A DNA stretch of 46,196 nt from Candidatus Zambryskiibacteriota bacterium (GCA_963840745.1 CAWJAC010000003.1:1-46196); one strand, 5' to 3'; counted from the first letter of the stretch, positions 12,994-44,287 are shown. The notes: generated by a model from the letters alone, not told the origin. Made by a program: numbers and translations.

Positions 12994-14094
12994 ATGAAAT
13001 TAGAATGCAATAAATCAAAAATAGAGTCTGTTATTCAAAAAGCTTCAAAGTTGGCAAATAAGCATCTAACCTTACCAGTTCTTTCTTGTGTCTATTTAGA
13101 TGTTTTAAATGACAACAAACTTATTGTAAAATCAACCAATTTGGATATTGGAGTAGAAATTGAATTAAAAGTTAAAACCATAGAGAAAGGCACCATAGCG
13201 GTGCCGGCCAGTATTCTACTTGGAGTGCTATCTTCAATCAAGGAAGATGATTTAGTTTTTGAAACTAAAGATAATAATCTTAAAATATCTTCCAATAAAA
13301 ATTCAGCGATCATTAAATGCATGCCGCATGAAGATTTTCCAAGTATTCCTAAAATAAAAGATCTTAAAATAATAAAAATAAATTGTCGAGATCTTATTTT
13401 GGGGTTTAAATCAGTTTGGTATAGCGCCTCAAATTCAAACATTAAACCTGAATTATCAAGCGTTTATATATATAAAGGAGATAATAATCTGGTTTTTGTA
13501 TCCACCGACTCTTTCCGTTTGGCTGAAAAAAGAGTTAACACTAAAATCGCCACAGATTTTCCTCAAACTTTGATACCTTACAGAAATGTTTCGGAAATAA
13601 TAAAATTATTTGAGGATTATAATGGGGACATAAACATTGTTTTTGAAAAAAACCAAGCCGCTTTTACTACCGAGAATATTTATTTAGTCTCAAGGCTTAT
13701 AGACGGCTCTTTCCCAGATTACAAACAAATAATACCAAAAACATTTAGTACTACCGCCACTATTTTAAAGGAAGATTTGATAGATTCAATAAAAACATCA
13801 AATATTTTTTCAGACTCTTTGAATCAGGTTAAGTTAAAGGTAGATACTAAAACGAAATCATTAAATATAGAATCAAAAAATAATGATGTCGGTGAATATT
13901 ATAATTCAATCAATGCTTCGGTCTCCGGCGAAAATATAGAATTGAATTTCAACAGTCGGTACGTAATTGATTGCGTGCAATCGATTCCTTCTGACAGCTT
14001 AACTTTGAGTTTTGGCGGCATTGGCAAGCCTTTGGCTATAAACGGAGCCACCGATAAAAGTTTCCTCTACATCGTGATGCCGATGAATAGATAA
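12994..14094 (+). CDS. dnaN: DNA polymerase III beta sliding clamp
   Basis: A 366-aa protein directly after dnaA, with the typical three-domain beta-clamp sequence and a C-terminus ending IVMPMNR. Confidence 0.95.
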   Translation: MKLECNKSKIESVIQKASKLANKHLTLPVLSCVYLDVLNDNKLIVKSTNLDIGVEIELKVKTIEKGTIAVPASILLGVLSSIKEDDLVFETKDNNLKISSNKNSAIIKCMPHEDFPSIPKIKDLKIIKINCRDLILGFKSVWYSASNSNIKPELSSVYIYKGDNNLVFVSTDSFRLAEKRVNTKIATDFPQTLIPYRNVSEIIKLFEDYNGDINIVFEKNQAAFTTENIYLVSRLIDGSFPDYKQIIPKTFSTTATILKEDLIDSIKTSNIFSDSLNQVKLKVDTKTKSLNIESKNNDVGEYYNSINASVSGENIELNFNSRYVIDCVQSIPSDSLTLSFGGIGKPLAINGATDKSFLYIVMPMNR

Positions 14095-22098: not shown

Positions 22099-22566
22099 AT
22101 GAAAAATAACGGTTTTTTGACTCTTTTGGCCATCTCACTCGTCTTTTTGGCGAGCGGCTGCGCAGTTAGAGGTGGCGGCGGTTGGAGCAGGTTGGCTTCA
22201 ATCGCTACTCCGCCAATTCTGACAGTGGTGTTAAGTAACAACACCAACATTCCGGTTGAGGTTTATGAAAACGGCCAGCCGGTGATGTTCAAGTTGGCCG
22301 ATGGAACCTTCCACAACGCCATGATTCCTTCGGGTGGCACAGTGTCGCGCGGGTACTACAACTTCCTGGGACGGCGAGACATAGTCATCACTGTTCGCGG
22401 AGTTTGCCCGCCGACACCAGCGGAGACCGACAAAAAAGCCGCCGGTTGTACGCCGGGCCAGTATGCTGGCACCGACTCGCGAAGGTTTATGATCTACACG
22501 GACGGCCAATTTCATACAGAGGATTGGCAAATCGATTATCTTCGTGGGCCCAGGGGGGTTTACTAA
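22099..22566 (+). CDS. Lipoprotein of unknown function, compositionally foreign (GC-rich)
   Basis: MKNNGFLTLLAISLVFLASGC is a signal peptide with a lipobox (LASGC). Hand counts of 60-nt lines 22381-22440 and 22441-22500 give 34/60 and 36/60 G+C, against 18/60 for line 22621-22680 just outside. The tracked start at 21982 overlaps pilB and is rejected. Confidence 0.7.
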   Translation: MKNNGFLTLLAISLVFLASGCAVRGGGGWSRLASIATPPILTVVLSNNTNIPVEVYENGQPVMFKLADGTFHNAMIPSGGTVSRGYYNFLGRRDIVITVRGVCPPTPAETDKKAAGCTPGQYAGTDSRRFMIYTDGQFHTEDWQIDYLRGPRGVY

Positions 22567-22596
22567 GAAGGGAGAAGAATTCTCCCTTCTTTTTTT
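22567..22596 (+). terminator. Rho-independent terminator
   Basis: GAAGGGAGAA (22567-22576), loop GAA, TTCTCCCTTC (22580-22589), then T7 (22590-22596), immediately after the lipoprotein stop. Confidence 0.75.
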
Positions 22597-22612
22597 ATGC
22601 TAAAATCCTTTT

Positions 22613-23050
22613 ATGGAATTTTTATCTAAAAATGTTGAACAAACAGCCAAAATTGCCGTTGATTTTGCAGAGCAATTAAACAGAAGGGCACCTTCTGCAA
22701 CTGCGGTGGTTGTTGGATTATATGGAGAGTTGGGAAGCGGCAAAACTACTTTTATGAAATATTTGGCTGAAAGTTTTGGTATTAAAGAGACAATACAAAG
22801 CCCCACTTTTGTTATTGAAAAAATATACGAGCTCGAAAATAAATTTTTTCAGCATTTGATACATATTGACGCATATAGAATAGAAAAAGAAGAAGAGATG
22901 ATAAATTTGGGCTGGCAGGAAATCATTTCTGACCCAAAAAATTTAATTTGTATAGAATGGGCCGACAGAATCGTCGGCATCATACCGAGCCATATTATGG
23001 TAAAATTCGAACATGTCGGAGAAAACGAAAGAAAAATTAATATTGCTTGA
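22613..23050 (+). CDS. tsaE: tRNA t6A37 biosynthesis ATPase TsaE
   Basis: P-loop GELGSGKTTF with the YjeE-family layout, about 145 aa. Confidence 0.85.
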   Translation: MEFLSKNVEQTAKIAVDFAEQLNRRAPSATAVVVGLYGELGSGKTTFMKYLAESFGIKETIQSPTFVIEKIYELENKFFQHLIHIDAYRIEKEEEMINLGWQEIISDPKNLICIEWADRIVGIIPSHIMVKFEHVGENERKINIA

Positions 23051-25400
23051 TGCACACGCCATTATACATCGGGCTTATCACGCTTTGCCTGATTTTGCCA
23101 CAAGCAAAGGCGAGCCGACAGGGGCGCTTTATGGTTTGGTGGCAATGATTTTAAAAATAATTTCCGATCTCAAACCCGATTATATTGTGGCCTGTTACGA
23201 TTTGCCCAAACCAACTTACAGGCACCAAGTTTATGAAGGATACAAGGCAGGAAGAGCAAAAACTGACGATGAGTTGGCTCTTCAGCTTGAAAAATCAAAA
23301 CAAATTTGCGAAGTCTTAAACATTCCCATTTATTCTAAAGAAGGTTTTGAAGCTGATGATATGCTCGGTACCATAGTTGAAAAAATGAAAGGTAATGATG
23401 TTGATATTGTTATTGCTTCTGGTGACATGGATACTCTTCAGCTCGTGGATGATAACTATGTGAAAGTCTACACTTTAAAAAAGGGCATCAAAGACACTAT
23501 TTTGTACGATGAAAAAGCAGTTAAAGAAAGATATGGTTTTGAACCGGCTCTCCTGGTAGATTTCAAAGGTCTGCGCGGCGATCCTTCAGATAATATTATT
23601 GGAATTAGCGGCGTAGGAGAAAAAAGCGCAACTGATTTAATAAAAGAATTTGGCAGTATTGAGAATATTTATAAAGTTTTAAAAAAGGATCCTAAAAAAC
23701 TTGAGGAGAAAGGCATTAGAAAAGGAATTATAGAATTACTTAAAAATGGGGAAGAGGAGGCTAAGTTCTCCAAAATGCTCGCTACCATTCGCCGGGACGC
23801 GCCAATAGATTTTGTTTTGCCGGATAAAAAATGGAAAGACGGTTTGGATATTAAAAAAGCAGAGACGCTTTTCGGAGAATTGGAGTTTAGGAATATGGGG
23901 GAAAGATTGAAAAAAGTTTTAACTGGTCAGCAGGAAAGATTCTCTTCCGAAAAGTCCTCGGGTCTCCTCGCTAAAGCTCGGCCAGACTTTTCTCCAGAGA
24001 ACTTTCCTGCTGACCCCGAAGAGACTTTAGTAGCTCTCTGGGTAGTTGATTCTAATATAACCAATCCGAAACCGGAAGATCTTTTTAATTTCGCCGGCAC
24101 CCAAAATTTTGAAGAAGCCAAAAAAATCGTTTTTGATGAGCTTAAAAAAAGAGACAGTCTCTCTGTCTTTGAAAAAATAGAAAAGCCCCTCATTCCTATT
24201 TTGGAAGAAACCAAAAGATATGGAATTTCTGTGGACAAAAAGTTTTTGGAAAATTTAGGGGAAGAATATTCAAAAGAGCTCAAAAAAATTGAAACTAAAA
24301 TCTGGCAAGTTGCCGGAGTGGAATTCAATGTCTCTTCTCCCAAACAGTTGGGGGAAATTTTGTTTGGCAAATTGAACCTCTCTGTAAAAAATCAAAAAAA
24401 GACCGCGGGTGGCGCCAAGTCCACCAAAGAGTCCGAGCTCGATAAATTGCGTGATTTGCATCCTATCGTGCCGCTGGTTTTGGAATACCGAGAACTACGA
24501 AAACTTATTTCAACCTATATAGAGCCTATACCAAAAGCTCTTGATGGTTTTTCCCGTTTACATTCGAGGTTTGTTCAAGCTGGCGCAGCTACTGGTCGAA
24601 TGTCTTCAGAGAGTCCCAATCTCCAAAATATTCCCATTGGCAGTGAGCGAGGCAGGGTTATAAGAAAGGCCTTTTTTGCGCCAAAAGGCAGCAAGTTTGT
24701 AGCGTTTGATTATTCCCAAATAGAATTGCGAATAGCGGCTTTTTTGTCGAGAGACCAAAAACTGGTTGAGATTTTTAAAGACGGGAAAGATATTCACTCT
24801 GCCGTGGCTTCGGAAGTTTTTAAAGTTTCAGAAAATGAAGTAAGCAGGGAAATGAGGAGACAGGCCAAGGTCATTAATTTTGGCATTCTCTATGGTATGG
24901 GGGTGAACGCTTTGCAGGTAAACCTTGGGACAGATCGCAAAACCGCGCAACAATTTTTGAATTCTTATTTTGAAAATTTTTCTGGCTTGGCGAAATATCT
25001 AGACAATGCCAAACTGGAAGCGGCAAAAAACAGCTATACCAAAACTTTCTTCGGTAGGAGGAGATATTTTGAGGGTATAAAATCCAAACTTCCTTTTATA
25101 AAAGCGGCAGCAGAAAGAATGGCGATTAATGCTCCGATCCAAGGCACTTCAGCTGATATCATAAAAATTGCCATGAAAGACATAAACACTTTTATAAAAA
25201 AAGAAAATCTGGCGGATTCGACGCATCTCGTAATGCAAATTCATGATGAGCTTGTATATGAAGTCAAAGACGAGGTTTTGGATAGATTTGTTCCGCAGGC
25301 CAAAAAAATAATGGAAAGCGTGATTACTTTGCAACAAAGCCTAGGAGTACCGATTGTTGTAAACACTGCTATAGGCCAAAATTGGGGAGAGATGAAATAA
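23013..25400 (+). CDS. polA: DNA polymerase I (5'-nuclease plus polymerase; 3'-5' exonuclease region strongly reduced)
   Basis: An N-terminal FEN/5'-3' exonuclease domain (LLDAHAIIHRAYHA, GDPSDNIIGISGVGEKSA). Polymerase motifs A (DYSQIELR), B (RRQAKVINFGILYG) and C (QIHDELV). Only about 100 aa separate the two modules. Confidence 0.95.
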   Translation: MSEKTKEKLILLDAHAIIHRAYHALPDFATSKGEPTGALYGLVAMILKIISDLKPDYIVACYDLPKPTYRHQVYEGYKAGRAKTDDELALQLEKSKQICEVLNIPIYSKEGFEADDMLGTIVEKMKGNDVDIVIASGDMDTLQLVDDNYVKVYTLKKGIKDTILYDEKAVKERYGFEPALLVDFKGLRGDPSDNIIGISGVGEKSATDLIKEFGSIENIYKVLKKDPKKLEEKGIRKGIIELLKNGEEEAKFSKMLATIRRDAPIDFVLPDKKWKDGLDIKKAETLFGELEFRNMGERLKKVLTGQQERFSSEKSSGLLAKARPDFSPENFPADPEETLVALWVVDSNITNPKPEDLFNFAGTQNFEEAKKIVFDELKKRDSLSVFEKIEKPLIPILEETKRYGISVDKKFLENLGEEYSKELKKIETKIWQVAGVEFNVSSPKQLGEILFGKLNLSVKNQKKTAGGAKSTKESELDKLRDLHPIVPLVLEYRELRKLISTYIEPIPKALDGFSRLHSRFVQAGAATGRMSSESPNLQNIPIGSERGRVIRKAFFAPKGSKFVAFDYSQIELRIAAFLSRDQKLVEIFKDGKDIHSAVASEVFKVSENEVSREMRRQAKVINFGILYGMGVNALQVNLGTDRKTAQQFLNSYFENFSGLAKYLDNAKLEAAKNSYTKTFFGRRRYFEGIKSKLPFIKAAAERMAINAPIQGTSADIIKIAMKDINTFIKKENLADSTHLVMQIHDELVYEVKDEVLDRFVPQAKKIMESVITLQQSLGVPIVVNTAIGQNWGEMK

Positions 25401-33566: not shown

Positions 33567-34526
33567 ATGAAATTTAGATTTCTCTCTAAATATTTTCCAC
33601 CGCCAAAATTTTTAAAACCGCCTTATATTGGAATTTCTTTTTCTGACACCAGTATTAAAGCAATTTCATTTGATAAAAAATCAAGAGGGCCTCGTTTTAA
33701 AAGCACTATCATTTCAGTTGAAAAAGGATCGATAGTTCAAGGCAAGATTGCGAGTATGGAGGAAATTGTTAAAAAACTTTCCATTGTAAAGAAAAATTTT
33801 GATTCACCGTTTGTTTTTTTTACTGTGCCGGATGAGTTGACCTATGTATTTTCGGCTTCAATACCCGCCACTGGAGCCGACATAACAGAAGCGGTGGCTT
33901 TCATCATTGAAGAAAATGTGCCTCTTTCTTTGAGCGAAACTATTTTCGATTTTGTGCCAATCCAGATACTTCAATCTGACTCGAGCTATACTGCTTCGGT
34001 GGTAGTGGCTGCTTGTGTTAAAAAAGAAGTAGAGAAATTTTTGGAAGCATTTCGCAGAGCCGGATTTGAACCGGTAGGCTGTGCCCACGAATCCCAAGCC
34101 ATTGCTAGAGCAATCATTCCTCAAAAATTTTTTGGAACATTTTGTATTGTTCACGCGAGAGAAAACAAAATCGGAGTTCATTTAATAAAAAACAAAATAG
34201 TTTGTTTTTCTACCATCAGAAACGTTTCAAACGGTGATTATAAAAAGGAATTTTTAGATGAATACGAAAAGTTTTTAGAATATTGTTTGAGATATGATGC
34301 AAACTTAAGTCAGCCTATCAAATCCATTTTTGTTTGCGGTGAATTTGAAAATGCTCAAAAAGTGGTTGAAGCGATAAATGACTCTAACTATAGTCTAAAA
34401 AACATCAAATTATCCAATGTGTGGACCAATGTTTTTGAGATAGATAAATATCTTCCTGACATTCCTTTTGAAAAATCTTTAAGCTTCGCTGGATCAATCG
34501 GGGCGGCCTTGTCCGATATAATATAA
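33567..34526 (+). CDS. pilM: Type IV pilus assembly protein PilM-like (actin-fold)
   Basis: A 319-aa protein immediately upstream of a PilN-like gene, with an actin/FtsA-like layout (IGISFSDTSIKAISF...). Confidence 0.7.
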   Translation: MKFRFLSKYFPPPKFLKPPYIGISFSDTSIKAISFDKKSRGPRFKSTIISVEKGSIVQGKIASMEEIVKKLSIVKKNFDSPFVFFTVPDELTYVFSASIPATGADITEAVAFIIEENVPLSLSETIFDFVPIQILQSDSSYTASVVVAACVKKEVEKFLEAFRRAGFEPVGCAHESQAIARAIIPQKFFGTFCIVHARENKIGVHLIKNKIVCFSTIRNVSNGDYKKEFLDEYEKFLEYCLRYDANLSQPIKSIFVCGEFENAQKVVEAINDSNYSLKNIKLSNVWTNVFEIDKYLPDIPFEKSLSFAGSIGAALSDII

Positions 34527-34537
34527 ATTTATAAGAA

Positions 34538-35086
34538 ATGAATCTTTTGCCAAAAACAGAAAAAGAGGATTTAAAAAAGGGTTTAAAACTTCGTTTTGCC
34601 ATTGTGGCTATGTTTCTATTATCGGCATCCTTTTTGATTGGTTTCGTTATGTTTCTACCTTCTTATTTTTTAGCTTTTGGTTATTTCTCTAAAACTGCTC
34701 CCGATAGTTATTTTTTGAAACCAGAAAACAGCGATTCAATCAATAAAATTTTAAGTTTACCGGACGAGATCAGTTCAAAACTGGGTTTTTTCCAATCAAA
34801 TATCCATAATGTTTCGGTGGCGGATTATTTTTCCAAAATTGTCGACAATCTGCCAAAAGGGGTGCAGATAAATTCGATATCATTTTCTAAAAATCAAAAT
34901 TATAATGGGAATAACGGTACCGTTATTTTAGTTTCAGGAATAGCTGTCAGTAGGGATTCTCTAATGTCCTTCTCAACACTCTTAAAAGAATCTGGTTTGT
35001 TTTCTGATGTTGAAGTGCCGGTCTCAAATTTAACCAAAGACGAAAACCTGCCTTTTTCTATAAATATCTTAATTGAAAATGAATAA
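34538..35086 (+). CDS. pilN: PilN-like pilus assembly protein
   Basis: The N-terminal MNLLPK matches the conserved PilN INLLP motif that binds PilM. It has a single TM helix and a periplasmic ferredoxin-like region. Confidence 0.65.
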   Translation: MNLLPKTEKEDLKKGLKLRFAIVAMFLLSASFLIGFVMFLPSYFLAFGYFSKTAPDSYFLKPENSDSINKILSLPDEISSKLGFFQSNIHNVSVADYFSKIVDNLPKGVQINSISFSKNQNYNGNNGTVILVSGIAVSRDSLMSFSTLLKESGLFSDVEVPVSNLTKDENLPFSINILIENE

Positions 35087-35603
35087 TTGGATTCCAAAAA
35101 GCAAAGTTGTAAGATTTGCAGCAATAATCGCTCTCTTTAGTATCATTCTGTATTTTGTTGGTCTGCTAATTGTTCTTAATGAAATAAACAAAGTAAAAAA
35201 TTTTTATAGCGATACCAGCTCCGAGTCATTTAAAGAAGAGAAGTTTTGGGCAATTAAGTCCATAGCCGAGGCAAATAGTGGACCAATACAAACTTTAAGA
35301 GATTTCTTTATTCAAAAAGGTGATGAAGTAAAATTTATAGAACAAATAGAAGGAGTTGCTAAAACCTCTTCCATTAAATCTGAAATCAGCTCCATTGATG
35401 TTGCGGCGGATGGAGCAGATCCGTCCAAAGAAGATGTTGATGTAAAAATGAACGCAGAAGGTTCTTGGAAAAATATGATGCTCTTTTTAGACGGACTGGA
35501 AAAGATGCCCTTTGGAGTTTCAATTGATAAAGTCAATTTGGATGCCAATGTGCCAGGCAATTGGTCTGGGTCTGTTGAATTTATAGTTTTTAGAGAAAAA
35601 TAA
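35073..35603 (+). CDS. pilO: PilO-like pilus assembly protein
   Basis: Single N-terminal TM helix, a coiled segment and a C-terminal domain, translationally coupled to pilN by a 14-nt overlap. Confidence 0.5.
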   Translation: MKMNNWIPKSKVVRFAAIIALFSIILYFVGLLIVLNEINKVKNFYSDTSSESFKEEKFWAIKSIAEANSGPIQTLRDFFIQKGDEVKFIEQIEGVAKTSSIKSEISSIDVAADGADPSKEDVDVKMNAEGSWKNMMLFLDGLEKMPFGVSIDKVNLDANVPGNWSGSVEFIVFREK

Positions 35604-35605
35604 AA

Positions 35606-35908
35606 ATGAAATTTAATTTTTCAAAATTTAAAAAGAAAAGTTTACCATCCTTAAGATCTTTGCGGTCGCAGATTTTTGATGTTGATTTATTTTGGTTTGT
35701 GGCCCTTGGTTTATGCGCGGTAATTATTATAGTCACGATCTCGATCGGGTTTAAACTTTTCTACTCCCAGTATTTTGGAAGCTATAAAACATCATCTTCA
35801 GAAAATTTTGAAAGCACTATGAATATAGATAAACTCAAAAGTGCCATTGAAAAGAGAAATATTTTTCTAAACCAAAAAATTTCTCCATCTCATGACCCTT
35901 CGCTATAA
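35606..35908 (+). CDS. Small single-pass membrane protein (pilus-cluster associated, hypothetical)
   Basis: A 100-aa ORF starting 2 nt after pilO, with one TM helix (LFWFVALGLCAVIIIVTISIGF). Confidence 0.5.
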   Translation: MKFNFSKFKKKSLPSLRSLRSQIFDVDLFWFVALGLCAVIIIVTISIGFKLFYSQYFGSYKTSSSENFESTMNIDKLKSAIEKRNIFLNQKISPSHDPSL

Positions 35909-35920
35909 AGATTTTGTTTG

Positions 35921-35991
35921 TGCCCCCGGGGGAATCGGACCCACATTAGAAGGTTAGAAACCTTCCGTTCTATCCATTGAACTACGGGAGC
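35921..35991 (-). tRNA. tRNA-Arg (anticodon UCU); T-arm/acceptor junction 1-2 nt short
   Basis: The reverse complement folds as GCTCCCG/TA/GTTC-AATGGATA-GAAC/G/GAAGG-TTTCTAA-CCTTC/..., and the 5' half is perfect. The 3' part, TAATGTGGGTCCGATTCCCCCGGGGGCA, cannot give a 5-bp T stem, 7-nt loop and 7-bp acceptor unless the C5/G5 runs (35923-35932) are one base longer. Confidence 0.7.
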
Positions 35992-35993
35992 AG

Positions 35994-36066
35994 TGCGCGG
36001 TGGAGGGCTCGAACCCCCGACATCGTCAGTGTAAATGACGCGCTCTACCAACTGAGCTAACCGCGC
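35994..36066 (-). tRNA. tRNA-Val (anticodon UAC)
   Basis: The reverse complement folds as GCGCGGT/TA/GCTC-AGTTGGTA-GAGC/G/CGTCA-TTTACAC-TGACG/ATGTC/GGGGG-TTCGAGC-CCTCC/ACCGCGC/A. A canonical 73-nt cloverleaf. Confidence 0.9.
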
Positions 36067-36108: not shown

Positions 36109-36945
36109 ATGGAAATTAAAATCTTATACGAAGATGAATATATTTTAGCCTTAGACAAGCCGTCGGGATTAATGGTGCATTCTGACGGTAGAACAAAAGA
36201 GGAGACTTTGGTGGATTGGATAAACCAAAATTATCCAGATTTGAAAGAGGTGGGGGAGGAACAAACTTTACAAAATGGACAAAAAATAAAAAGACCAGGC
36301 ATCGTTCATAGGCTCGATAAAGATACCAGCGGGGTGATTATTGTCGCTAAAACCAAAGAAGCTCATCAGTTTTTAAAAGAACAATTTAAAAACAGAAAGG
36401 TTGAGAAAATATACAATGCTGTTGTTTGGGGAAATTTCTCAGCAGACAAAATTTCAGGAATAATAGATAAACCCATAGGCAAAAGCGCGGCTGATTTCAG
36501 AAGATGGTCATCGGAACATGGTGCCAAAGGAGAGATGAGAGAGGCTGTGACTGAATATAAAGTAATTATGCAAAAAAATATCACCCCCTCACTTCGTGTA
36601 GACCCCTCTTATATTAAGATGGATAAAAACAAAAAAGAAACTGAAGACATTACCCGTAACTTTGCATATCTCGAGGTCAGGCCAAAAACAGGAAGAACTC
36701 ACCAGATAAGAGTTCATTTAAAATCAATTTCGCATCCGGTGGTTTGCGACAAATTGTATGGACCTAACCCTACTTCGCTAAAGCTTCGCGAGGCTACGGA
36801 AAAAATTTTAGGCTTTGATCGATTGGCTTTGCATGCTCTTTCAATAAAATTAGAGCTTCCCAATCATACTCATATAACCATAGAATCTCCTTTGCCAACC
36901 GAATTTGAAAATGCTAAAAATCTTTTAAAAACGGCTGAAAAGTGA
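36109..36945 (+). CDS. RluA-family pseudouridine synthase (RluD-like, no S4 domain)
   Basis: Catalytic motif HRLDKDTSGVIIVAK, together with RTHQIRVHL. Confidence 0.85.
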   Translation: MEIKILYEDEYILALDKPSGLMVHSDGRTKEETLVDWINQNYPDLKEVGEEQTLQNGQKIKRPGIVHRLDKDTSGVIIVAKTKEAHQFLKEQFKNRKVEKIYNAVVWGNFSADKISGIIDKPIGKSAADFRRWSSEHGAKGEMREAVTEYKVIMQKNITPSLRVDPSYIKMDKNKKETEDITRNFAYLEVRPKTGRTHQIRVHLKSISHPVVCDKLYGPNPTSLKLREATEKILGFDRLALHALSIKLELPNHTHITIESPLPTEFENAKNLLKTAEK

Positions 36946-36951
36946 TATATT

Positions 36952-39900
36952 TTGGATATGTCAGAGGAAAATAAAACTCAAAAAAGCAAAATAGCCGAAA
37001 GGGAGGAGGAAATACTCAAATTTTGGCAAGAAAACAAAATTTTCCAAAAATCTCTTGAAAAACCTGCACCAATGGGCGAATTTGTATTTTATGAAGGTCC
37101 TCCGACGGCAAATGGTAAGCCCGGTATTCACCACCTGGAAGCCAGGGCTTTTAAAGATACTCTTCCTCGTTATAAAACAATGAAAGGTTTTCATGTCCGT
37201 CGTAAAGGCGGCTGGGACACTCACGGTCTCCCGGTTGAACTTCAAGTGGAAAAGCAGTTGGGACTTAAATCAAAAAAAGAAATAGAGAGTTACGGTATTG
37301 AAAAATTCAATAAAAAATGCAAAGAAAGCGTTTGGGAGTATGTTGATTTGTGGGAGAAATTTACAGACAGAATAGGTTATTGGATTGATCAAAAGAATCC
37401 TTATGTGACTTACGAAAATTACTATATGGAGGCGGTTTGGAATATTATAAAGAAAGTAAACGAAAGAGATCTTCTTTATAAAGATTACAAAGTGGTGCCG
37501 TGGTGCCCACGTTGCGGCACCGGCCTTTCAAGTCATGAATTGGCTCAAGGATATGAAGATGTCAAAGATACATCAGTAACTATTAAATTTAAATTATTGC
37601 CCGGTCAAAAAATAGGTGATTGGGAGACCGACGATAAAACTTATGTCTTAGCTTGGACAACTACACCGTGGACTTTGCCAGGGAACGTTGCCTTGGCCGT
37701 TAAAAAAGATATTTCTTATAGCGCTGTCAAAATTGATGATGTAGACGAACTCTTAATTCTAGCTACTGATCTAATAGAAAAAGTGCTTGTTGGGCATAAA
37801 GTTGAAGAGTCAAGTAAGTTTAAAGGCGAAAATATTTTGGGACTTGAATACGAGCCTCTTTATCCATATCTCGAACAAAATGCTCCGGATTCAGAAAAGG
37901 AAAAAATAGACAAAGCGTTTAAGATTTATGATGCCGGTTTTGTGACTACCGAAGACGGAACAGGTGTTGTTCATACTGCGGTTATGTACGGTCAAGAGGA
38001 TTTTGAATTAGGAAATAAAATTGGTTTACCTAAGGTTCACATAGTAAAAGATGACGGTACTTTCAAAGAAGGAATGGATTTTCTCTCTGGCAGATTTGTT
38101 AAAGAAAAAGATGAAAAAGGGAAACCGACTCTTGATGTAGATATTATAGAAGACCTTAAGAAAAAAGGATTTTACTTCCATAACGAACCTTATAGACATT
38201 CATACCCGTTTTGTTGGCGCTGCCACACCCCCCTTATCTATTACGCTAGGGATTCCTGGTATATAAAAATGTCTAGCTTGCGCGAGACCCTCGTGAAAGA
38301 AAATGAGGATATTAATTGGGTACCAGCTCACATAAAAGAAGGGCGGTTTGGGGAGTGGCTAAAAGAAGTGAAGGATTGGGCTATTTCGCGTGAACGCTAT
38401 TGGGGGACCCCTCTTCCTGTCTGGCAAAACAGTGAAGGCAAGACTTTAGTTATTGGGAGTATTGATGAATTAAAAAAACATACCAAAAAATCAGGAAATA
38501 AATATTTCGTGATGAGGCACGGAGAGGCTGAGCATAATGTTTTGAATATAGCCAGCAATTTACCAGATTTTCCTCATCATTTGACCAAAAAAGGCGAAGA
38601 TCAATCTTTGGAAGCTGGTAAAAATCTTAAAAATAAAAAAATAGATGCAATTTATTGTTCTACATTTTTAAGAACAAGAGAAACAGCTCAAATAATCGCC
38701 AAAGAAATTGGCTTTGATGAAAGCAAAATAAAATTTGATGACAAAATCAGAGAATTTGATTTTGGTGATTTTCATTTAAAATCTTTTAATGATTATTTGG
38801 AATATGAAAAATCAAATATGAAAAATTATGATGACAAAATATCAGGCGGAGAAAGTTATCAGGATTCCAAAAACAGAGTTGGTGATTTTATGTATGAAGT
38901 TGATTCAAAACATAAAGGGGAGAATATTTTAATTGTAACTCATGGAATTTTTCTTGAAGTTTTGCCGGCGATACTTGAAGGGGCAGATGCCAAAAGATCA
39001 AAACAGATTATAGACGCTTTAAGTCCTGAAATTGGAGGAATTTCTGAATATTTCTTTGTACCTTTACCTCACAATGAAAATTATGAACTTGATTTGCACA
39101 AACCTTATATTGATGAAATTGAGCTTGTAGATGAGAAGGGAAATGAACTGAAGAGGACAAAAGAGGTAATGGATGTCTGGCTCGACTCGGGCTCGATGCC
39201 TTTTGCCCAAGATGGATTGGAATCTCAAAAAGAAATTAAATATCCGGCCGATTTTATTTCAGAAGCTGTGGATCAAACCAGGGGTTGGTTTTACACTTTG
39301 CATGCAATCGGTGTTCTTATGAAAAGAGGCAAAGCTTTTAAAAACGTAATTTGCTTGGGACATATTCTTGATGCCAATGGCAAGAAGATGTCTAAATCTC
39401 TTGGCAATATTGTAGACCCTTGGCTTATGATAGATAAATACGGTTCTGATGCTTTGCGCATGTGGATGTACACAGTAAACCAACCCGGAGATTCAAAGAA
39501 TTTTGATGAAAAAACGGTTGATGATGTGGTAAAAAAAATATTTAATCCAGTATCAAATATTCTGTCATTCTATGAATTATATAGGGACGAAAACGTAAAA
39601 CCTTCTCTTAAAAGCGGACACATTTTGGATAAATGGGTTATTTCCAAATTAAACCTTCTCTTGGAGGAAGGAGGCCAAGATCTTGAGGAATACCATGTAT
39701 TTGAAGCAGCTAGAGGAATCAGGGACTTTGCAAATGATTTCTCCACTTGGTACCTAAGGCGCTCGAGAGACAGATTTAGATCTGAAAACAAAGAAGACAA
39801 GGAAAATGCTTTGGCCACTACTCATTTTGTTTTGCTTCAGCTTGCCAAATATATGGCACCCTTTACACCGTTTTTTGCCGAGAATCTGTATTTGAAATTA

Positions 39901-40449
39901 AAATCTGAAAAAGATCCGGAGAGTGTGCATCTTTGTAGTTGGCCGGAAGAAGGAAAAATTGATGAAAAAATTATTAAAAATATGGAAGAAGTGAGAAAGG
40001 TAGTGTCTTTGGCGCTTGAAAAAAGAATGGCCTCTGGCATAAAAGTAAGACAACCTTTAAATGAATTAAGAATTAAGAATTATGAATTAAAGGGCAAGGA
40101 AGAATATTTGGAACTTATAAAAGACGAAATAAACGTAAAAAACATTTCTTTCAATGAAAAACTGGAGACAAAAGTAGAATTGGATATCAAAATTACAGAA
40201 GAACTGCAAAAAGAGGGTGATGCCAGAGAACTTGTAAGGACAGTTCAGGAATTAAGAAAAGAAAAAAAGCTGATGCCTTTTGATGTTATTGAACTTGTGG
40301 TTGAAACAGATGAAAAGGGCGAAGAATTCTTAAACTCTGTTTTGGAACAAATAAAAAAAGCGACAAATGTAAGCAAAATCTTGTTTGAAAATAATGATAG
40401 CGAAGAATTGAAAATTGAAAATTATAAATTGAAAATTAAAATTAAATAA
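36952..40449 (+). CDS. ileS: Isoleucine--tRNA ligase with an internal histidine-phosphatase-like insertion
   Basis: PTANGKPGIHHLEAR (HIGH region), the CP1 editing region (TTTPWTLPGN), WAISRERYWGTPLP, and KMSKSLGN. The tracked start is TTG at 36952; ATG at 36958 is the more likely start. At 1165 aa it is long because of the insertion at 38500-39080. Confidence 0.95.
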   Translation: MDMSEENKTQKSKIAEREEEILKFWQENKIFQKSLEKPAPMGEFVFYEGPPTANGKPGIHHLEARAFKDTLPRYKTMKGFHVRRKGGWDTHGLPVELQVEKQLGLKSKKEIESYGIEKFNKKCKESVWEYVDLWEKFTDRIGYWIDQKNPYVTYENYYMEAVWNIIKKVNERDLLYKDYKVVPWCPRCGTGLSSHELAQGYEDVKDTSVTIKFKLLPGQKIGDWETDDKTYVLAWTTTPWTLPGNVALAVKKDISYSAVKIDDVDELLILATDLIEKVLVGHKVEESSKFKGENILGLEYEPLYPYLEQNAPDSEKEKIDKAFKIYDAGFVTTEDGTGVVHTAVMYGQEDFELGNKIGLPKVHIVKDDGTFKEGMDFLSGRFVKEKDEKGKPTLDVDIIEDLKKKGFYFHNEPYRHSYPFCWRCHTPLIYYARDSWYIKMSSLRETLVKENEDINWVPAHIKEGRFGEWLKEVKDWAISRERYWGTPLPVWQNSEGKTLVIGSIDELKKHTKKSGNKYFVMRHGEAEHNVLNIASNLPDFPHHLTKKGEDQSLEAGKNLKNKKIDAIYCSTFLRTRETAQIIAKEIGFDESKIKFDDKIREFDFGDFHLKSFNDYLEYEKSNMKNYDDKISGGESYQDSKNRVGDFMYEVDSKHKGENILIVTHGIFLEVLPAILEGADAKRSKQIIDALSPEIGGISEYFFVPLPHNENYELDLHKPYIDEIELVDEKGNELKRTKEVMDVWLDSGSMPFAQDGLESQKEIKYPADFISEAVDQTRGWFYTLHAIGVLMKRGKAFKNVICLGHILDANGKKMSKSLGNIVDPWLMIDKYGSDALRMWMYTVNQPGDSKNFDEKTVDDVVKKIFNPVSNILSFYELYRDENVKPSLKSGHILDKWVISKLNLLLEEGGQDLEEYHVFEAARGIRDFANDFSTWYLRRSRDRFRSENKEDKENALATTHFVLLQLAKYMAPFTPFFAENLYLKLKSEKDPESVHLCSWPEEGKIDEKIIKNMEEVRKVVSLALEKRMASGIKVRQPLNELRIKNYELKGKEEYLELIKDEINVKNISFNEKLETKVELDIKITEELQKEGDARELVRTVQELRKEKKLMPFDVIELVVETDEKGEEFLNSVLEQIKKATNVSKILFENNDSEELKIENYKLKIKIK
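38500..39080 (+). other. Histidine phosphatase superfamily (PGAM/CobC-like) domain embedded in ileS
   Basis: Residues about 517-710: KYFVMRHGEAEHN (RHG motif), TFLRTRETA, and ILIVTHGIFLEVL (second catalytic His). It is in frame with no stops and is flanked by IleRS segments GSIDELKK and LDLHKPYIDEIEL. Confidence 0.6.
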
Positions 40450-40459
40450 ATTTAATTTT

Positions 40460-41039
40460 GTGTATTGTAAACATCATACCAAGGGCATTGTGGTTGGAAG
40501 TAAAATTGAAGGAGATAGTAGTAAGCGGGCAAATATATTTACAGAAAATTTTGGTTTGATAAGCGCTCGTGTGCAGGGAGGCAGAAACATTCGTTCAAAA
40601 CTGCGAAGCGGCTGCCAAGATTTTTCTTTTGGCGATTTTTCATTAGTACATGGTAAAAGCGGCTGGCGGGTGGTCAGCAGCCGGGCCGAAAAGAATTTTT
40701 TTGAATTGTTTAGAAATTTTCCTGATAAACTAAAAATTGTCGGCAACATTCTTAATTTAATCAAGAAACTCACAAGCGAAGAGGAAGCTCATACCCCGCT
40801 TTTTTCTGTTGTCTCAAATTTCTTAAATTTTTTGGTAACAGCCAAAGAACAAGATATTGCCCTCGCCGAATGTCTGACCCTTTTACGTGCCTTGCACATA
40901 CTTGGGTTTATGGGACACGATCCGGAAACTTACAGTTCCAATATCCTCCTCGGAAATAGAAATAAAAGATTTGGAAATGATTGCTCCCCGAAGGTCAAAA
41001 ATAATTGCTCTCATTAACGAATCTCTCAAAGCGACGTAA
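40460..41039 (+). CDS. recO: DNA repair protein RecO; 3' end frameshifted
   Basis: An N-terminal OB-fold-like region (TKGIVVGSKIEGDSSKRANIFTENFGLISARVQGGR). The tracked ORF ends at 41017 in odd sequence (GNRNKRFGNDCSPKVKNNCSH*). Frame 0 from about 40945 reads SSEIEIKDLEMIAPRRSKIIALINESLKAT* with a stop at 41037-41039. Confidence 0.8.
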
Positions 41040-41062: not shown

Positions 41063-43039
41063 ATGCAATATGATGATGAAAAAAAAGAAAAACTGAATAG
41101 GCTTGAGAAGAAACTCTATTCTAGAAGTGCTCCCAATATAATTGACAAAGGCCGATCAGATTTTAATCAGTCACCCAATCAAGGTGGTGTCGAAGGAATT
41201 AACGGAGAAAATGAAGAGGTGAAAGAAAGATGGACAAACAGCAAAACCGGTGGTTTTGATGAATTGGTGGCAAGATTTTCTCGAGCTACCAACAAAAAAT
41301 ACAGTTTTATTAAAAAAATTTTTATCTTTTCCGTAATATTTTTTGTGTTAGCTGTCGGTGTAGCAGCCTACGTATTTTTTGGCGGAATAAATTCAGTTTC
41401 CTCAAAAAATGTGGATATAGAAGTGGTTGGGCCGCTTTCTATTCCCGGCGGTCAAGAAGTTTCTTTGGATATAAATATCATAAACAACAACAGCGTCGAT
41501 CTTAATTCCGCTTCTCTCCTTGTTGAATATCCAACAAGCACCAGATCAGTTGCAGATCCTACTAAAGAGCTTACTCAGGAAAAATTTGTTTTAGACAAAA
41601 TAAAATCTGGAGAAAGTTATGGCCAAAACATCAAAGCAATTTTCTTTGGTGAAAAAGATGACTTGAAACAAATAAAAATTTCTTTGGAATACAGAGTGGA
41701 AAATTCAAGCGCTCTGTTTTACAAAGAAAAAATTTACGAAATATCCATCAGTTCCTCTCCGATCATAATCACCCCCACTTACCCAAAAGAAGTTAATTCA
41801 AATCAGGAAGTCTCTTTCAATATAGAAGTGGCTTCAAATTCCAAAGATAAAGTAAATAATTTTTTGGTTAATGTTGAATATCCGTTTGGTTTTGTCTTTG
41901 AAGATTCAACACCGAAAGCATCTTTCGGTAATAATATTTGGCAAATTCCAGAACTTGATTCCGGAGAAAAGAAAACAATTTCCATAAAAGGAAATATTGT
42001 TGGCCAAGATAATGAAGAAAAAGTCTTTAAAATAAACGCTGGAACAGCAAGTCCGGATGATGAAAGAGTAATAGCCATTCCATTTTCACAGCTAATGGAA
42101 TCGATTTTGGTAAAAAAATCTTTCATCGGATTGGATGTTTCTGTCGGTGGAGGCAGCGGTGATTTTGCTGGTCAAGGCGGCAGCAGCGTCGATACCAATT
42201 TTACAGTCACAAATAATTTACCGTCTAAACTGTTTAATACCTCGGTTGAGGTTGCTTTTACCGGTGGTGCTTTCGACCCGCTCTCTGTTTCACCGGGATA
42301 TAACGGCTTTTTCCAATCTTCCAACAACACTATTTCTTGGGATAAAAGATCTGTGCCGGAATTTTCTGAAATGGATCCTGGTTCTGAGAAAAACTTATCT
42401 TTTCGCCTGTCGCCGCTTTTGTACGCAAATATAGTCAAAGGCGCAAAACCGGAAATAGATATGGTTATAACTGCCAATGGTGAAAGAATCTTAGATTCTG
42501 GTTCAGTAGAGTCGGTTTCCACTACGGAAACAAGAAAGATTATTCTCAGCAGCGATGTATCTTTTTCGTCGACAGTTTCAAGATCTGTGGGCAATATTGA
42601 AAATTCCGGTCCGATACCGCCCAAAGCCAATGTACCTACCACTTATACTGTGATTTGGAGTATCAGCAATTCGTTTAATCAGGTAAGCAATGTGGAGGTC
42701 AGGGCCACTTTGCCTCCCTATATAAAATGGACTAATTTAAAAAATCCGAGCAGTGAATTGTTTAGTTTTGATCCAGTGACCAACGAAGTTGTTTGGAATG
42801 TAGGATCGCTCCTACCCAATACTGGTTTTGGTTCTCCTAAAAAAGAAATATATTTCCAACTGCAATTTCTGCCAAGCCTTAGCCAAATCGGGCAAAGCCC
42901 GACTATATTAGGTGAAGCTTCTCTTTCCGGTATTGATAAGATGACAGGACTTAAAATAGAGACGACGGCGCCGGCAGTCGCCACCAATTTTTCAGGAGAC
43001 CCGAGTTTCAAAATAGAAGATGACAAGGTGGTGCAATAA
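41063..43039 (+). CDS. Large membrane-anchored extracytoplasmic protein with repeated Ig-like/CARDB-like beta-sandwich modules (hypothetical)
   Basis: A 658-aa protein with a charged N-terminus and one TM helix (IFIFSVIFFVLAVGVAAYVFFGG). It then has repeated modules of the form 'G..V.f.i.i.N.s...l....l.veYP.gf'. Confidence 0.65.
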   Translation: MQYDDEKKEKLNRLEKKLYSRSAPNIIDKGRSDFNQSPNQGGVEGINGENEEVKERWTNSKTGGFDELVARFSRATNKKYSFIKKIFIFSVIFFVLAVGVAAYVFFGGINSVSSKNVDIEVVGPLSIPGGQEVSLDINIINNNSVDLNSASLLVEYPTSTRSVADPTKELTQEKFVLDKIKSGESYGQNIKAIFFGEKDDLKQIKISLEYRVENSSALFYKEKIYEISISSSPIIITPTYPKEVNSNQEVSFNIEVASNSKDKVNNFLVNVEYPFGFVFEDSTPKASFGNNIWQIPELDSGEKKTISIKGNIVGQDNEEKVFKINAGTASPDDERVIAIPFSQLMESILVKKSFIGLDVSVGGGSGDFAGQGGSSVDTNFTVTNNLPSKLFNTSVEVAFTGGAFDPLSVSPGYNGFFQSSNNTISWDKRSVPEFSEMDPGSEKNLSFRLSPLLYANIVKGAKPEIDMVITANGERILDSGSVESVSTTETRKIILSSDVSFSSTVSRSVGNIENSGPIPPKANVPTTYTVIWSISNSFNQVSNVEVRATLPPYIKWTNLKNPSSELFSFDPVTNEVVWNVGSLLPNTGFGSPKKEIYFQLQFLPSLSQIGQSPTILGEASLSGIDKMTGLKIETTAPAVATNFSGDPSFKIEDDKVVQ

Positions 43040-43057: not shown

Positions 43058-44287
43058 ATGGCAGAAAAAAATGATAATAAAATGGAAAAAATAATTTCGC
43101 TATGCAAGAGGCGGGGATTTGTATTTCAAGGTTCGGAGATTTATGGAGGCTTGGCTGGTACTTGGGATTATGGGCCGTATGGCGTAGCACTCAAAAATAA
43201 TATCAAAAACCTTTGGTGGAAAATATTTATTAACGGCAGAAAAGATATGTATGGTATGGATGCAGCCATAATAATGAATCCCAAAGCCTGGGAAGCCAGC
43301 GGTCATGTCTCCGGTTTTACCGATCAGACGGACGAGGGTAAAAAGTTCAATGTGATGTTTAAAACATCTGTTGGTGCTGGTGATTCTGCCACCCTAAGCT
43401 ATCTGCGGCCAGAAACAGCCGGAGGAATGTTTGTTAATTTTAAAAATATTTTGGATTCAATTCATCCCAAATTGCCTTTCGGTTTGGGCCAGATCGGCAA
43501 GGCCTTTAGAAATGAAATTGCGCCCCGAGATTTTGTATTTCGTTCCAGAGAATTTGAGCAAATGGAAGTTGAGTATTTTATCAGGTCAGAGACTTGGGAA
43601 AAATCTTTTGATGAATGGAGAAAAGTAATACTTGATTGGTGCGAATTAATTGGTCTCCAAAAATCACACATTCACGAACTTGAAGTGCCAGATGGGGAGC
43701 GGGCTCATTATTCAAAACGCACTATTGATTTTGAATTTGATTATCCTTTTGGCAAAAAAGAACTTTATGGTCTTGCGTACAGAACTGATTTTGATTTAAG
43801 AAGTCACACAACCATGTCTAGTGTTGATTTGTCCTATTATGATGAAGAAACAAAAGAAAGATTTGTTCCGCATGTTATAGAACCTTCTTTGGGAGTTGAC
43901 CGCACCGTTTTGGCTATTTTGAGTGATGCTTATACTGAAGATGAAATGAATGGGGAAGCCAGAACTTACCTAAAATTTGCTCCAAAGTTGGCTCCAATAA
44001 AAGTAGCCATTTTCCCATTGCTTAAAAATAAACCAGAATTAGTTAAAAAAGCCCAAGAAATTTTTGAAAACTTGCAGAATGAATTTATTTGCGAATTTGA
44101 CGATAATGGCAACATCGGCAAAAGATACAGAAGGCAAGACGAAATCGGCACGCCATTTTGTGTGACCATAGATTTTGATACTTTGGAAAAATCTGCCGGT
44201 GTGACAGTTCGCGATCGCGACAGCGGCAAACAAGAAAGAATTTCAGAAAACAACCTCGTTTCATATCTAAAAGAAAAGATGTTATAG
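43058..44287 (+). CDS. glyQS: Glycine--tRNA ligase (alpha2-type, unusually compact)
   Basis: RRGFVFQGSEIYGGLAGTWDYGPYG, YLRPETAGGMFVNF (motif 2 region), and the C-terminal anticodon-binding domain (GKRYRRQDEIGTPFCVTID). It is 409 aa. Confidence 0.9.
   Translation: MAEKNDNKMEKIISLCKRRGFVFQGSEIYGGLAGTWDYGPYGVALKNNIKNLWWKIFINGRKDMYGMDAAIIMNPKAWEASGHVSGFTDQTDEGKKFNVMFKTSVGAGDSATLSYLRPETAGGMFVNFKNILDSIHPKLPFGLGQIGKAFRNEIAPRDFVFRSREFEQMEVEYFIRSETWEKSFDEWRKVILDWCELIGLQKSHIHELEVPDGERAHYSKRTIDFEFDYPFGKKELYGLAYRTDFDLRSHTTMSSVDLSYYDEETKERFVPHVIEPSLGVDRTVLAILSDAYTEDEMNGEARTYLKFAPKLAPIKVAIFPLLKNKPELVKKAQEIFENLQNEFICEFDDNGNIGKRYRRQDEIGTPFCVTIDFDTLEKSAGVTVRDRDSGKQERISENNLVSYLKEKML

Follow-up and report, generated by a model that had tools for sequence, protein, structure and literature searches.

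The gene for isoleucyl-tRNA synthetase (IleRS), ileS, of a Candidatus Zambryskiibacteriota bacterium carries in frame a branch-1 histidine phosphatase domain of about 189 amino acids (aa), which very probably is an active phosphatase, as its conserved catalytic residues suggest. The stretch analysed, hereafter the window, is the whole of GCA_963840745.1 CAWJAC010000003.1:1-46196, of 46,196 nucleotides; ileS occupies 36952-40449 and the insert 38488-39054 (aa 513-701), all features of the gene being on the + strand. Here, I show that the domain (His_Phos) is co-inherited with IleRS across a whole class of Patescibacteria, and that its acquisition has been recurrent and host-specific, the hosts being IleRS and valyl-tRNA synthetase (ValRS). 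An initial annotation, made from the sequence alone, had drawn attention to the domain; the three insertion sites, or ports, of IleRS with a sequence family of their own each, the further domains added there and the occurrence in ValRS are new with respect to it. The best explanation as a whole, namely an active phosphatase selected for its physical coupling to a class Ia synthetase, has in my estimate an even chance of being right.

The limits of the insert are given by alignment to the solved structures 8c8w and 1ILE. Residues 13-511 of the window protein match residues 9-478 of the 8c8w chain and residues 710-1081 match 483-863, such that about 198 residues of the query stand in place of about four. 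Following in silico deletion of the insert, the flanks are colinear with residues 426-602 of the Thermus thermophilus IleRS (E = 6e-54), the junction being aligned to '...ELKARATK' on the N-terminal side. Pfam returns tRNA-synt_1 in two pieces with His_Phos_1 (PF00300) in between, the latter spanning aa 519-685 (38506-39006) with a highly significant match (E = 7e-34, 117.6 bits, cut-off 21.7); likewise, the ileS equivalog TIGR00392 (891.3 bits, cut-off 621.4) is matched in two stretches, one on each side of the insert. The block of about 190 aa that the initial annotation had placed at 38500-39080 is therefore real, with slightly shifted ends, and corresponds to no known IleRS insertion lacking the catalytic histidines. 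The motifs it had quoted, WAISRERYWGTPLP, LDLHKPYID (aa 713-721), MRHGEAEHN, STFLRTRETA and IVTHG, are all present at the places it gave. It had further proposed that other IleRS enzymes have only a short linker at this point; this is correct as to length, with about four residues in 8c8w, but the site is no mere linker, for in type-2 IleRS this loop joins the two Cys pairs of the second Zn knuckle, which in the T. thermophilus enzyme read wvCqaCg ... laCaCgg. The insertion falls in the second half of the Rossmann fold, about 110 residues before the KMSKS loop, and in terms of sequence position the annotation was thus right to put the phosphatase next to the synthetic site.

On the N-terminal side (38377-38487), the conserved segment WAISRERYWGTPLP (aa 476-489) is followed by a half-knuckle, VWQNSEGK, and by a linker ending in ELKKHTK, whose residues K..K...N.Y are conserved at levels of at least 60-90%. 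On the C-terminal side (39052-39192) come the linker FFVPLPHNENYELDLHKPYID, the second half-knuckle VDEKGNE and the active-site motif DVWLDSG. The C-terminal linker is almost invariant in the window clade, with the pattern F...PHN..YELDLH.P..D (F700, P704, H705, N706, Y709, E710, L711, D712, H714, P716 and D719, in the numbering of the database copy of the protein, P0001). None of the four Cys of the second knuckle is left in the window protein (38419-38440 and 39121-39141); since two siblings, P0117 (58% identical) and P0242, retain the knuckle Cys on both sides of the same insert, the knuckle was lost secondarily, after the insertion. The insert is poorer in G+C than the rest of the gene (30.5% versus 36.7%), with the lowest value, 26%, at 38600-38899. 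As the insert is old, its AT-richness is probably due to a weaker constraint on the amino acids and not to a recent transfer. A search of the junctions for mobile-element signatures yielded no terminal repeats, just short AT-rich chance repeats.

The insert aligns end to end, over 158 residues, with PhoE, a phosphatase of broad specificity (1EBB/1H2E; E = 4e-14), five catalytic residues being in register. They are Arg522 and His523 of the RHG motif (38515-38520), His523 being the predicted phospho-accepting nucleophile; Arg574 (38671-38673), the second phosphate-binding Arg, within S-T-F-L-R-T-R-E-T-A; Glu601 (38752-38754), the predicted general acid/base, aligned to the Glu of 'RE(I/L)..G' in PhoE; and His664 (38941-38943), the second catalytic His, in I-V-T-H-G, which is followed by Ile rather than by the Asn of mutases. 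Among 61 diverse homologues the two Arg and the two His are invariant, and the Glu is kept in at least 90%, being otherwise replaced by Asp. The pentad reads R-H-R-E-H in 326 and R-H-R-D-H in 13 of 377 domain instances; for embedded copies the figures are 275 and 4 out of 301, the others being truncated contigs or split short-cap hits. The description of a non-degenerate branch-1 domain, with both histidines and their Arg/Glu context kept, thus extends from the single sequence to hundreds of copies, and the pattern of conservation points to strong purifying selection on the catalytic residues. Between homologues the mean identity of the insert is 42%, versus 65% for the synthetase core, and the distances of the two co-vary (Mantel r = 0.41, a value reached by none of 999 permutations), indicating that the insert descends together with the enzyme, changes more quickly than it and is held constant chiefly at the catalytic centre and the linkers, as under selection on catalysis and not on the fold.

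Structure prediction agrees with this picture. An alignment-based AlphaFold model of the whole protein has a mean predicted local distance difference test (pLDDT) score of 86 and a predicted template-modelling (TM) score of 0.76, and the insert is its most confident region (pLDDT 89-96), as expected if the domain folds autonomously, a point that the initial annotation had proposed to check. The single-sequence model of the insert alone is poor (pLDDT 58); its top Foldseek matches are all histidine phosphatases (PspA, PhoE and CobC, TM-score about 0.65) and, coming from such a model, support the fold only and not the specificity.

As to the kind of histidine phosphatase, the domain looks like an enzyme of the PhoE/CobC/PspA type and not like a phosphoglycerate mutase; the earlier label 'PGAM-like' fits the fold, while mutase-specific features are absent. 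One might nonetheless think of the organism's own glycolytic, cofactor-dependent phosphoglycerate mutase (dPGM) fused to IleRS, for the Pfam family includes dPGM and there is a weak match to dPGM_arch (NF038349, 72.7 bits). That score is far under the cut-off of 225 bits, PRK01295 gives 47.8 bits versus 316, and TIGR01258 returns no match. Moreover, the insert has T-H-G-I, hence not HGN, and 'NMKNYDDK', in comparison with A-H-G-N ('AHGNSLRAL') and 'WRRSYDI' in the Schizosaccharomyces pombe mutase 1FZT, and lacks the substrate-binding Arg of 'RRSYD'. In relatives with the ValRS version, two genes for cofactor-independent phosphoglycerate mutase (iPGM) lie beside those for enolase and PGK, so that a glycolytic role for the domain is not needed in those genomes. 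The dPGM identity was rejected on these grounds, and a fused mutase is scarcely credible. Scores also remain below the cut-off for the equivalogs CobC (TIGR03162, 81.2 bits versus 162.9), SixA (TIGR00249, 40.4 versus 74.5, with only the N-terminal half matched) and PspA (63 versus 350); as no equivalog threshold is reached, a substrate cannot be transferred from the known enzymes.

The fusion is not peculiar to one contig. Both PF00133 and PF00300 are present in all of the 120 protein clusters nearest to the window protein (56-75% identity, from NCBI, JGI, ENA and Logan). Of the 80 loci recovered when one genome per species was scanned, every one has the insert at the same position and 79 have the exact RHG. 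These loci belong to Zambryskibacteria, Nomurabacteria, Kaiserbacteria, Paceibacterota, Parcubacteria and Minisyncoccia, the nearest relatives of the window protein being Zambryskibacteria at 74-75% identity. Accordingly, the survey of related genomes suggested in the initial annotation has found the same architecture throughout, and the assembly artefact that it had named as a possible refutation has fallen away. A chimera or a frameshift, to which the GC dip over the insert could have pointed, may be regarded as refuted for practical purposes, because 80 independently assembled species genomes share the architecture; in addition, the open reading frame is continuous, the 120 clusters stem from four databases and the flanks are colinear with solved IleRS structures. 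Two siblings, P0117 and P0120 (57-58% identical, 1324-1343 aa), bear the same insert and, at the C-terminus, a phosphohydrolase domain of HD (HDIG) type; for this tail there is just a generic, sub-threshold HDIG match and no specific family.

The host range of the domain is narrow. The insert alone was searched against 1.84 billion representative proteins and the best 150 relatives were classified: every multi-domain host among them is an IleRS or a ValRS, the remainder being either stand-alone proteins with a length of about 190 aa or, at about 400 aa, di-domain proteins (one of them from a Woesearchaeota archaeon). Within IleRS, the ports were assigned by means of the landmarks WGTP, DxWFxSG, DQTRGWF, KMSKS and WYxRRSR in 213 complete sequences. 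Site A is the Zn-knuckle loop, site B follows DxWFxSG, and site C lies between the catalytic and the anticodon-binding domains; all three are within about 100-300 residues of KMSKS in sequence. His_Phos occurs at site A only in 146 of the 213 IleRS, including all 104 complete IleRS of the window clade, at site C only in 36 and at site B only in 4. Combinations comprise B + C (9 sequences), a tandem at A (4), A + C (2) and A + B + C (1), and 11 IleRS are devoid of the domain. Two His_Phos copies share 41-45% identity when they occupy the same port and about 30% when their ports differ, the latter being no more than they share with free-standing proteins, and for site C the nearest neighbour of a copy is another site C copy in 48 of 48 cases. 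Each port thus has its own sequence family, which indicates that the acquisitions were independent.

Proteins with two His_Phos domains, in tandem at A or at B + C or A + C, include P0155 (locus L081), P0181, P0172, P0145, P0194 and their relatives; P0155 recurs unchanged on six contigs, the largest of 1.06 Mb. Sister copies within one protein are 22-37% identical and keep the pentad over the residues present, two copies being truncated. Recent duplication as a source of the extra copies was rejected, given this low identity and the grouping of copies by site and not by protein. A second lineage is that of Gracilibacteria, Peregrinibacteria and Peribacteria (P0281-P0396), with IleRS of up to 1859 aa in which the ports hold, beside His_Phos, GNAT domains, P-loop kinases (AAA_33/AAA_18/Zeta), a Ser-hydrolase, a DUF559 endonuclease or an IS200-like Y1 transposase. 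One such protein, P0341, has no His_Phos and bears at port B an unrelated phosphatase, of the HAD type.

The same domain is found in 38 of the 120 ValRS clusters around P0247. Bearers of it occur among the ValRS of Magasanikbacteria and Moranbacteria (the set studied being P0125, P0247 and P0397-P0494, and loci L085, L089 and L090), four copies being present in P0125; the landmark patterns for ValRS are strict and leave 73 of 121 sequences unclassified, so that site counts for ValRS are minimal ones. The valS loci L085 and L089 have identical synteny and are set apart by a clean in-frame indel, about 185 aa long, that follows WFSSGLWTFSTLGWP. In L083 and L084 (17319-21332 and 9725-13738), a 1337-aa ValRS with His_Phos lies 4 kb downstream of an insert-free IleRS gene, which hints, from a single case, that a genome may need the domain on either IleRS or ValRS. 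In L082, a stand-alone His_Phos gene is located 9 kb from an insert-free ileS (loci of interest at 13332-13841 and 22456-23151), and in two further insert-free ileS neighbourhoods nothing relevant was found. Comparison of the neighbourhoods of insert-free ileS is hence mixed, suggestive but not decisive. A free-standing Ser_hydrolase gene adjoins the insert-free ileS of L082, and the same domain is fused at port B of the IleRS P0331. In L087, a gene of the YbaK trans-editing type (tRNA_edit, 13109-13585) immediately follows an insert-free ileS.

What the phosphatase may do for a synthetase can be outlined from its relatives. The domain would be a phosphomonoesterase with the two-step mechanism of the superfamily, in which nucleophilic attack of His523 on the phosphate would yield a phospho-histidine, with Arg522, Arg574 and His664 holding it, whilst Glu601 would protonate the leaving group and then activate a water molecule. 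It would thus constitute a second, independent active site on a housekeeping synthetase, fixed in pose by the two conserved linkers, and its likeliest job, in my view, would be the removal of a phosphate that blocks aminoacylation. Two candidate substrates come to mind. One is a phosphorylated tRNA acceptor end of the kind made by toxSAS toxins, which pyrophosphorylate the CCA end of tRNA and thereby prevent aminoacylation (PMC11559606). The second would be a phosphorylated Ser in the KMSKS loop of IleRS itself, a modification that Hip-type kinase toxins introduce into other synthetases of class I: HipT phosphorylates Ser within the KMSKS of TrpS, and HipA phosphorylates Ser239 of GltX (PMC6581861). 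The P-loop kinase or HD domain added to some sibling IleRS was counted in favour of an un-blocking or switching role.

The several parts of this proposal deserve different degrees of belief. Coupling to the synthetase appears to have been selected, because the host is always IleRS or ValRS, because at least three ports were independently colonised and because a non-homologous phosphatase is present at the same port; that the phosphatase is functionally coupled to the synthetase is, on balance, a matter of equal chances. A specific un-blocking role is a tentative and rather doubtful idea. Unlikely, too, in so definite a form is the proposition that the IleRS and ValRS of Patescibacteria possess a built-in un-blocking or switching enzyme which removes toxin- or kinase-placed phosphate from the tRNA 3' end or from the KMSKS Ser. 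Several observations weigh against the coupling and un-blocking proposals. The same ports accept unrelated domains, and IleRS may therefore be no more than a host that tolerates insertions. ValRS can do without the insert, as the orthologous indel of L085 and L089 tells, and in a few ValRS copies the catalytic residues are degenerate. The cap region of the domain is of full size, as in small-molecule phosphatases, and the insert is acidic (median isoelectric point 5.6), neither of which is suggestive of an RNA or protein substrate. The cap is, moreover, weakly conserved and shortened in some lineages, and the insert scores below the threshold of every equivalog model considered (CobC, dPGM, PspA and SixA).

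Much of this would equally suit a passenger, that is, an active, general small-molecule phosphatase of metabolism, akin to PhoE or PspA, which has nothing to do with aminoacylation. It would reside in IleRS just because this enzyme is essential and constitutively expressed and its surface loops tolerate insertions, the fusion securing both expression and retention in a very small genome. Such a passenger is the chief rival and a serious possibility, if short of an even one: it would account for the full-length cap and the end-to-end likeness to PhoE and to the phosphoserine phosphatase PspA, for the acidity of the domain, for the many unrelated domains in the same loops, for the presence/absence polymorphism in orthologous valS and for the free-standing His_Phos gene 9 kb from an insert-free ileS. 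It does not readily explain why no host besides IleRS and ValRS appears among the best 150 relatives, why three ports were acquired independently and each was kept as a family of its own, or why a non-homologous HAD phosphatase occupies one of the same ports. The near-invariant linkers, in turn, imply a fixed pose, and other synthetase genes in the same loci (the class II synthetase of the window; TyrRS, ArgRS and GluRS in related loci) are without an insert.

The domain might instead have no catalytic task, either replacing the lost Zn knuckle as a structural element or sensing a phospho-ligand and thereby tuning IleRS allosterically. The loss of the four knuckle Cys that flank the insert in the window and the high conservation of the linkers would fit such a module; however, P0117 and P0242 keep the Cys and yet carry the insert, and a scaffold would not need the five catalytic residues that are retained in about 280 copies at 30-45% identity, and in tandem and multi-site copies as well, which makes this option improbable. 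More improbable still is a selfish or neutral in-frame insertion, brought in by a mobile element and kept merely because an essential gene would seldom lose it by a precise excision. The DUF559 endonuclease and the IS200-like Y1 transposase in frame in some sibling IleRS, the AT-richness of the insert relative to the rest of the gene and the clean gain or loss in valS speak for it; yet terminal repeats are absent from the junctions, the insert co-diverges with its host gene, and the catalytic residues are undecayed where decay would be expected without selection. Nor is a histidine phosphatase known to have any mobility function. An active phosphatase whose coupling to the synthetase has been selected remains the explanation preferred here.

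The host enzyme itself retains all the parts that an IleRS needs. As the initial annotation had stated, the open reading frame is continuous, being unbroken over 1165 codons as counted from TTG at 36952, and GIHH, the CP1 region and KMSKS are all there. The database copy has 1163 aa, and the ATG at 36958 is therefore the probable start; the gene upstream stops at 36945, so that the two genes are almost contiguous. The class I signature is a non-canonical G-I-H-H (aa 58-61, 37123-37134), which fits the G/AXHH motif type of IleRS2, a motif that gives IleRS2 hyper-resistance to mupirocin, with a Ki in the millimolar range (Brkic et al. 2023, PMC10485003). GIHH is common to the whole window clade; Gracilibacteria-type IleRS with His_Phos have the canonical HYGH. 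The CP1 editing domain (37504-38223), located by its motifs and by matches of isolated editing-domain structures to aa 200-419, is surrounded by the first Zn knuckle (CPRC, aa 185-188; CWRC, aa 421-424) and contains the editing motifs WTTTPWTLP (aa 235-243) and GTGVVHTA (aa 336-343). The motif residues of CP1 and of the first knuckle are invariant among the 61 homologues, as are K810, M811, S812 and K813 (P0001 numbering) of the KMSKS loop (aa 812-816, 39385-39399). Anticodon_1 (aa 893-1037) and the type-2 C-terminal domain DUF5915 (aa 1010-1165) complete the enzyme at 39628-40446. Structural matches favour IleRS2 and the eukaryotic/Thermus IleRS over IleRS1, hence a type-2 organisation, the closest structures in the PDB being the IleRS2 of P. 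megaterium (8c8w) and the IleRS of T. thermophilus. The exception models MupA and MupB (NF000257/NF000258) give only 730-736 bits versus a cut-off of 1900. Since its motifs are intact and the group has small genomes, the window protein presumably is the cell's working, sole-copy IleRS.

Around ileS, the window holds a gene for an RluA-type pseudouridine synthase (PseudoU_synth_2, 36109-36945) directly upstream; L083 and L084, both distantly related, likewise have such a gene upstream of ileS, and in L082 it lies 6 kb upstream. The rluA-ileS pair is closely preceded by genes for tRNA-Arg(TCT) (35920-35992) and tRNA-Val(TAC) (35993-36066), both on the - strand, which abut with zero spacer; before these, at 33567-35908, come genes for type IV pilus assembly (PilM, PilN and small membrane proteins). 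Downstream come recO (40460-41017), a 658-aa surface protein with DUF11 repeats (41063-43039) and a class II synthetase (43058-44287; 409 aa, tRNA-synt_2b and HGTP_anticodon) of ordinary size and without any inserted domain. The insertion is thus not general to the synthetases of this genome, and no insert was found in the TyrRS, ArgRS and GluRS of related loci.

Aminoacyl-tRNA synthetases are among the most studied of enzymes, and their accessory domains, for editing, tRNA binding or signalling, have repeatedly revealed new biology. In this light, a conserved, catalytically intact phosphatase embedded within the catalytic fold of a bacterial housekeeping synthetase, independently acquired at several sites and in two paralogous enzymes, is of interest. 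Should the domain act on tRNA ends or on the synthetase, it would add a new layer of translation defence or regulation in the Candidate Phyla Radiation, which makes up a very large share of bacterial diversity and is poorly understood. Un-blocking, if true, would define a new functional class of synthetase accessory domain and would provide, in cis, a new means of countering toxins that target translation; in lineages with an added P-loop kinase, GNAT or HD domain, the synthetase would then be a self-contained platform for translational control, immunity or repair. Even as an unrelated metabolic phosphatase, it would represent a striking domain insertion as an economy in a small genome. The ports, in turn, give structural biologists a map of insertion-tolerant sites in class Ia synthetases, and presence/absence pairs, such as valS of L085 and L089, are ready-made natural controls.

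In full-text literature searches, no description was found of a synthetase with an embedded histidine phosphatase, in line with the initial annotation, which knew of no described synthetase with this architecture, and a 2026 preprint on IleRS domain evolution makes no mention of it. In databases the architecture is abundant, mostly under the name 'class I tRNA ligase family protein', and JGI automatic annotation calls some homologues 'isoleucyl-tRNA synthetase/phosphohistidine phosphatase SixA'. Of the known systems, PhoE/YhfR of Geobacillus stearothermophilus (1EBB, 1H2E) is the best sequence match of the insert, with the same size and cap; PhoE, CobC and PspA are free-standing proteins of about 200 aa, whereas the window copy is an internal domain of a 1165-aa synthetase. 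A CobC-like histidine phosphatase joined to a nucleic-acid enzyme is known from the RNase H/acid phosphatase of the Mycobacterium tuberculosis Rv2228c type (NF005567), to which the insert has a partial match of 70 bits versus a cut-off of 326; there, the fusion is end to end and the partner enzyme is a different one. Among IleRS, ileS_w_GNAT (NF040702) is a curated variant with an extra enzymatic domain; the window protein reaches 316.7 bits versus 1999 on that model and Pfam shows no acetyltransferase domain in it, whereas IleRS with both GNAT and His_Phos are common in Gracilibacteria and Peregrinibacteria. Kinase-phosphatase pairs are exemplified by 6-phosphofructo-2-kinase/fructose-2,6-bisphosphatase and by polynucleotide kinase-phosphatase. 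The IleRS P0342, P0357 and P0363, which join His_Phos and an AAA_33/Zeta-type P-loop kinase, resemble these in architecture only, and the window protein has no kinase domain. The closest kin of the host enzyme is IleRS2 8c8w, its best match in the PDB (E = 1e-229, TM-score 0.70-0.78). IleRS2 has the same domain order and a DUF5915 C-terminus (PMC10485003); 8c8w is the GVHH 'hyper-resistant' mutant, and the window protein shares the motif type with a natural GIHH. Where solved and described IleRS2 have 4-10 residues at the insertion site, the window protein, devoid of the knuckle Cys, has a phosphatase of 189 aa.

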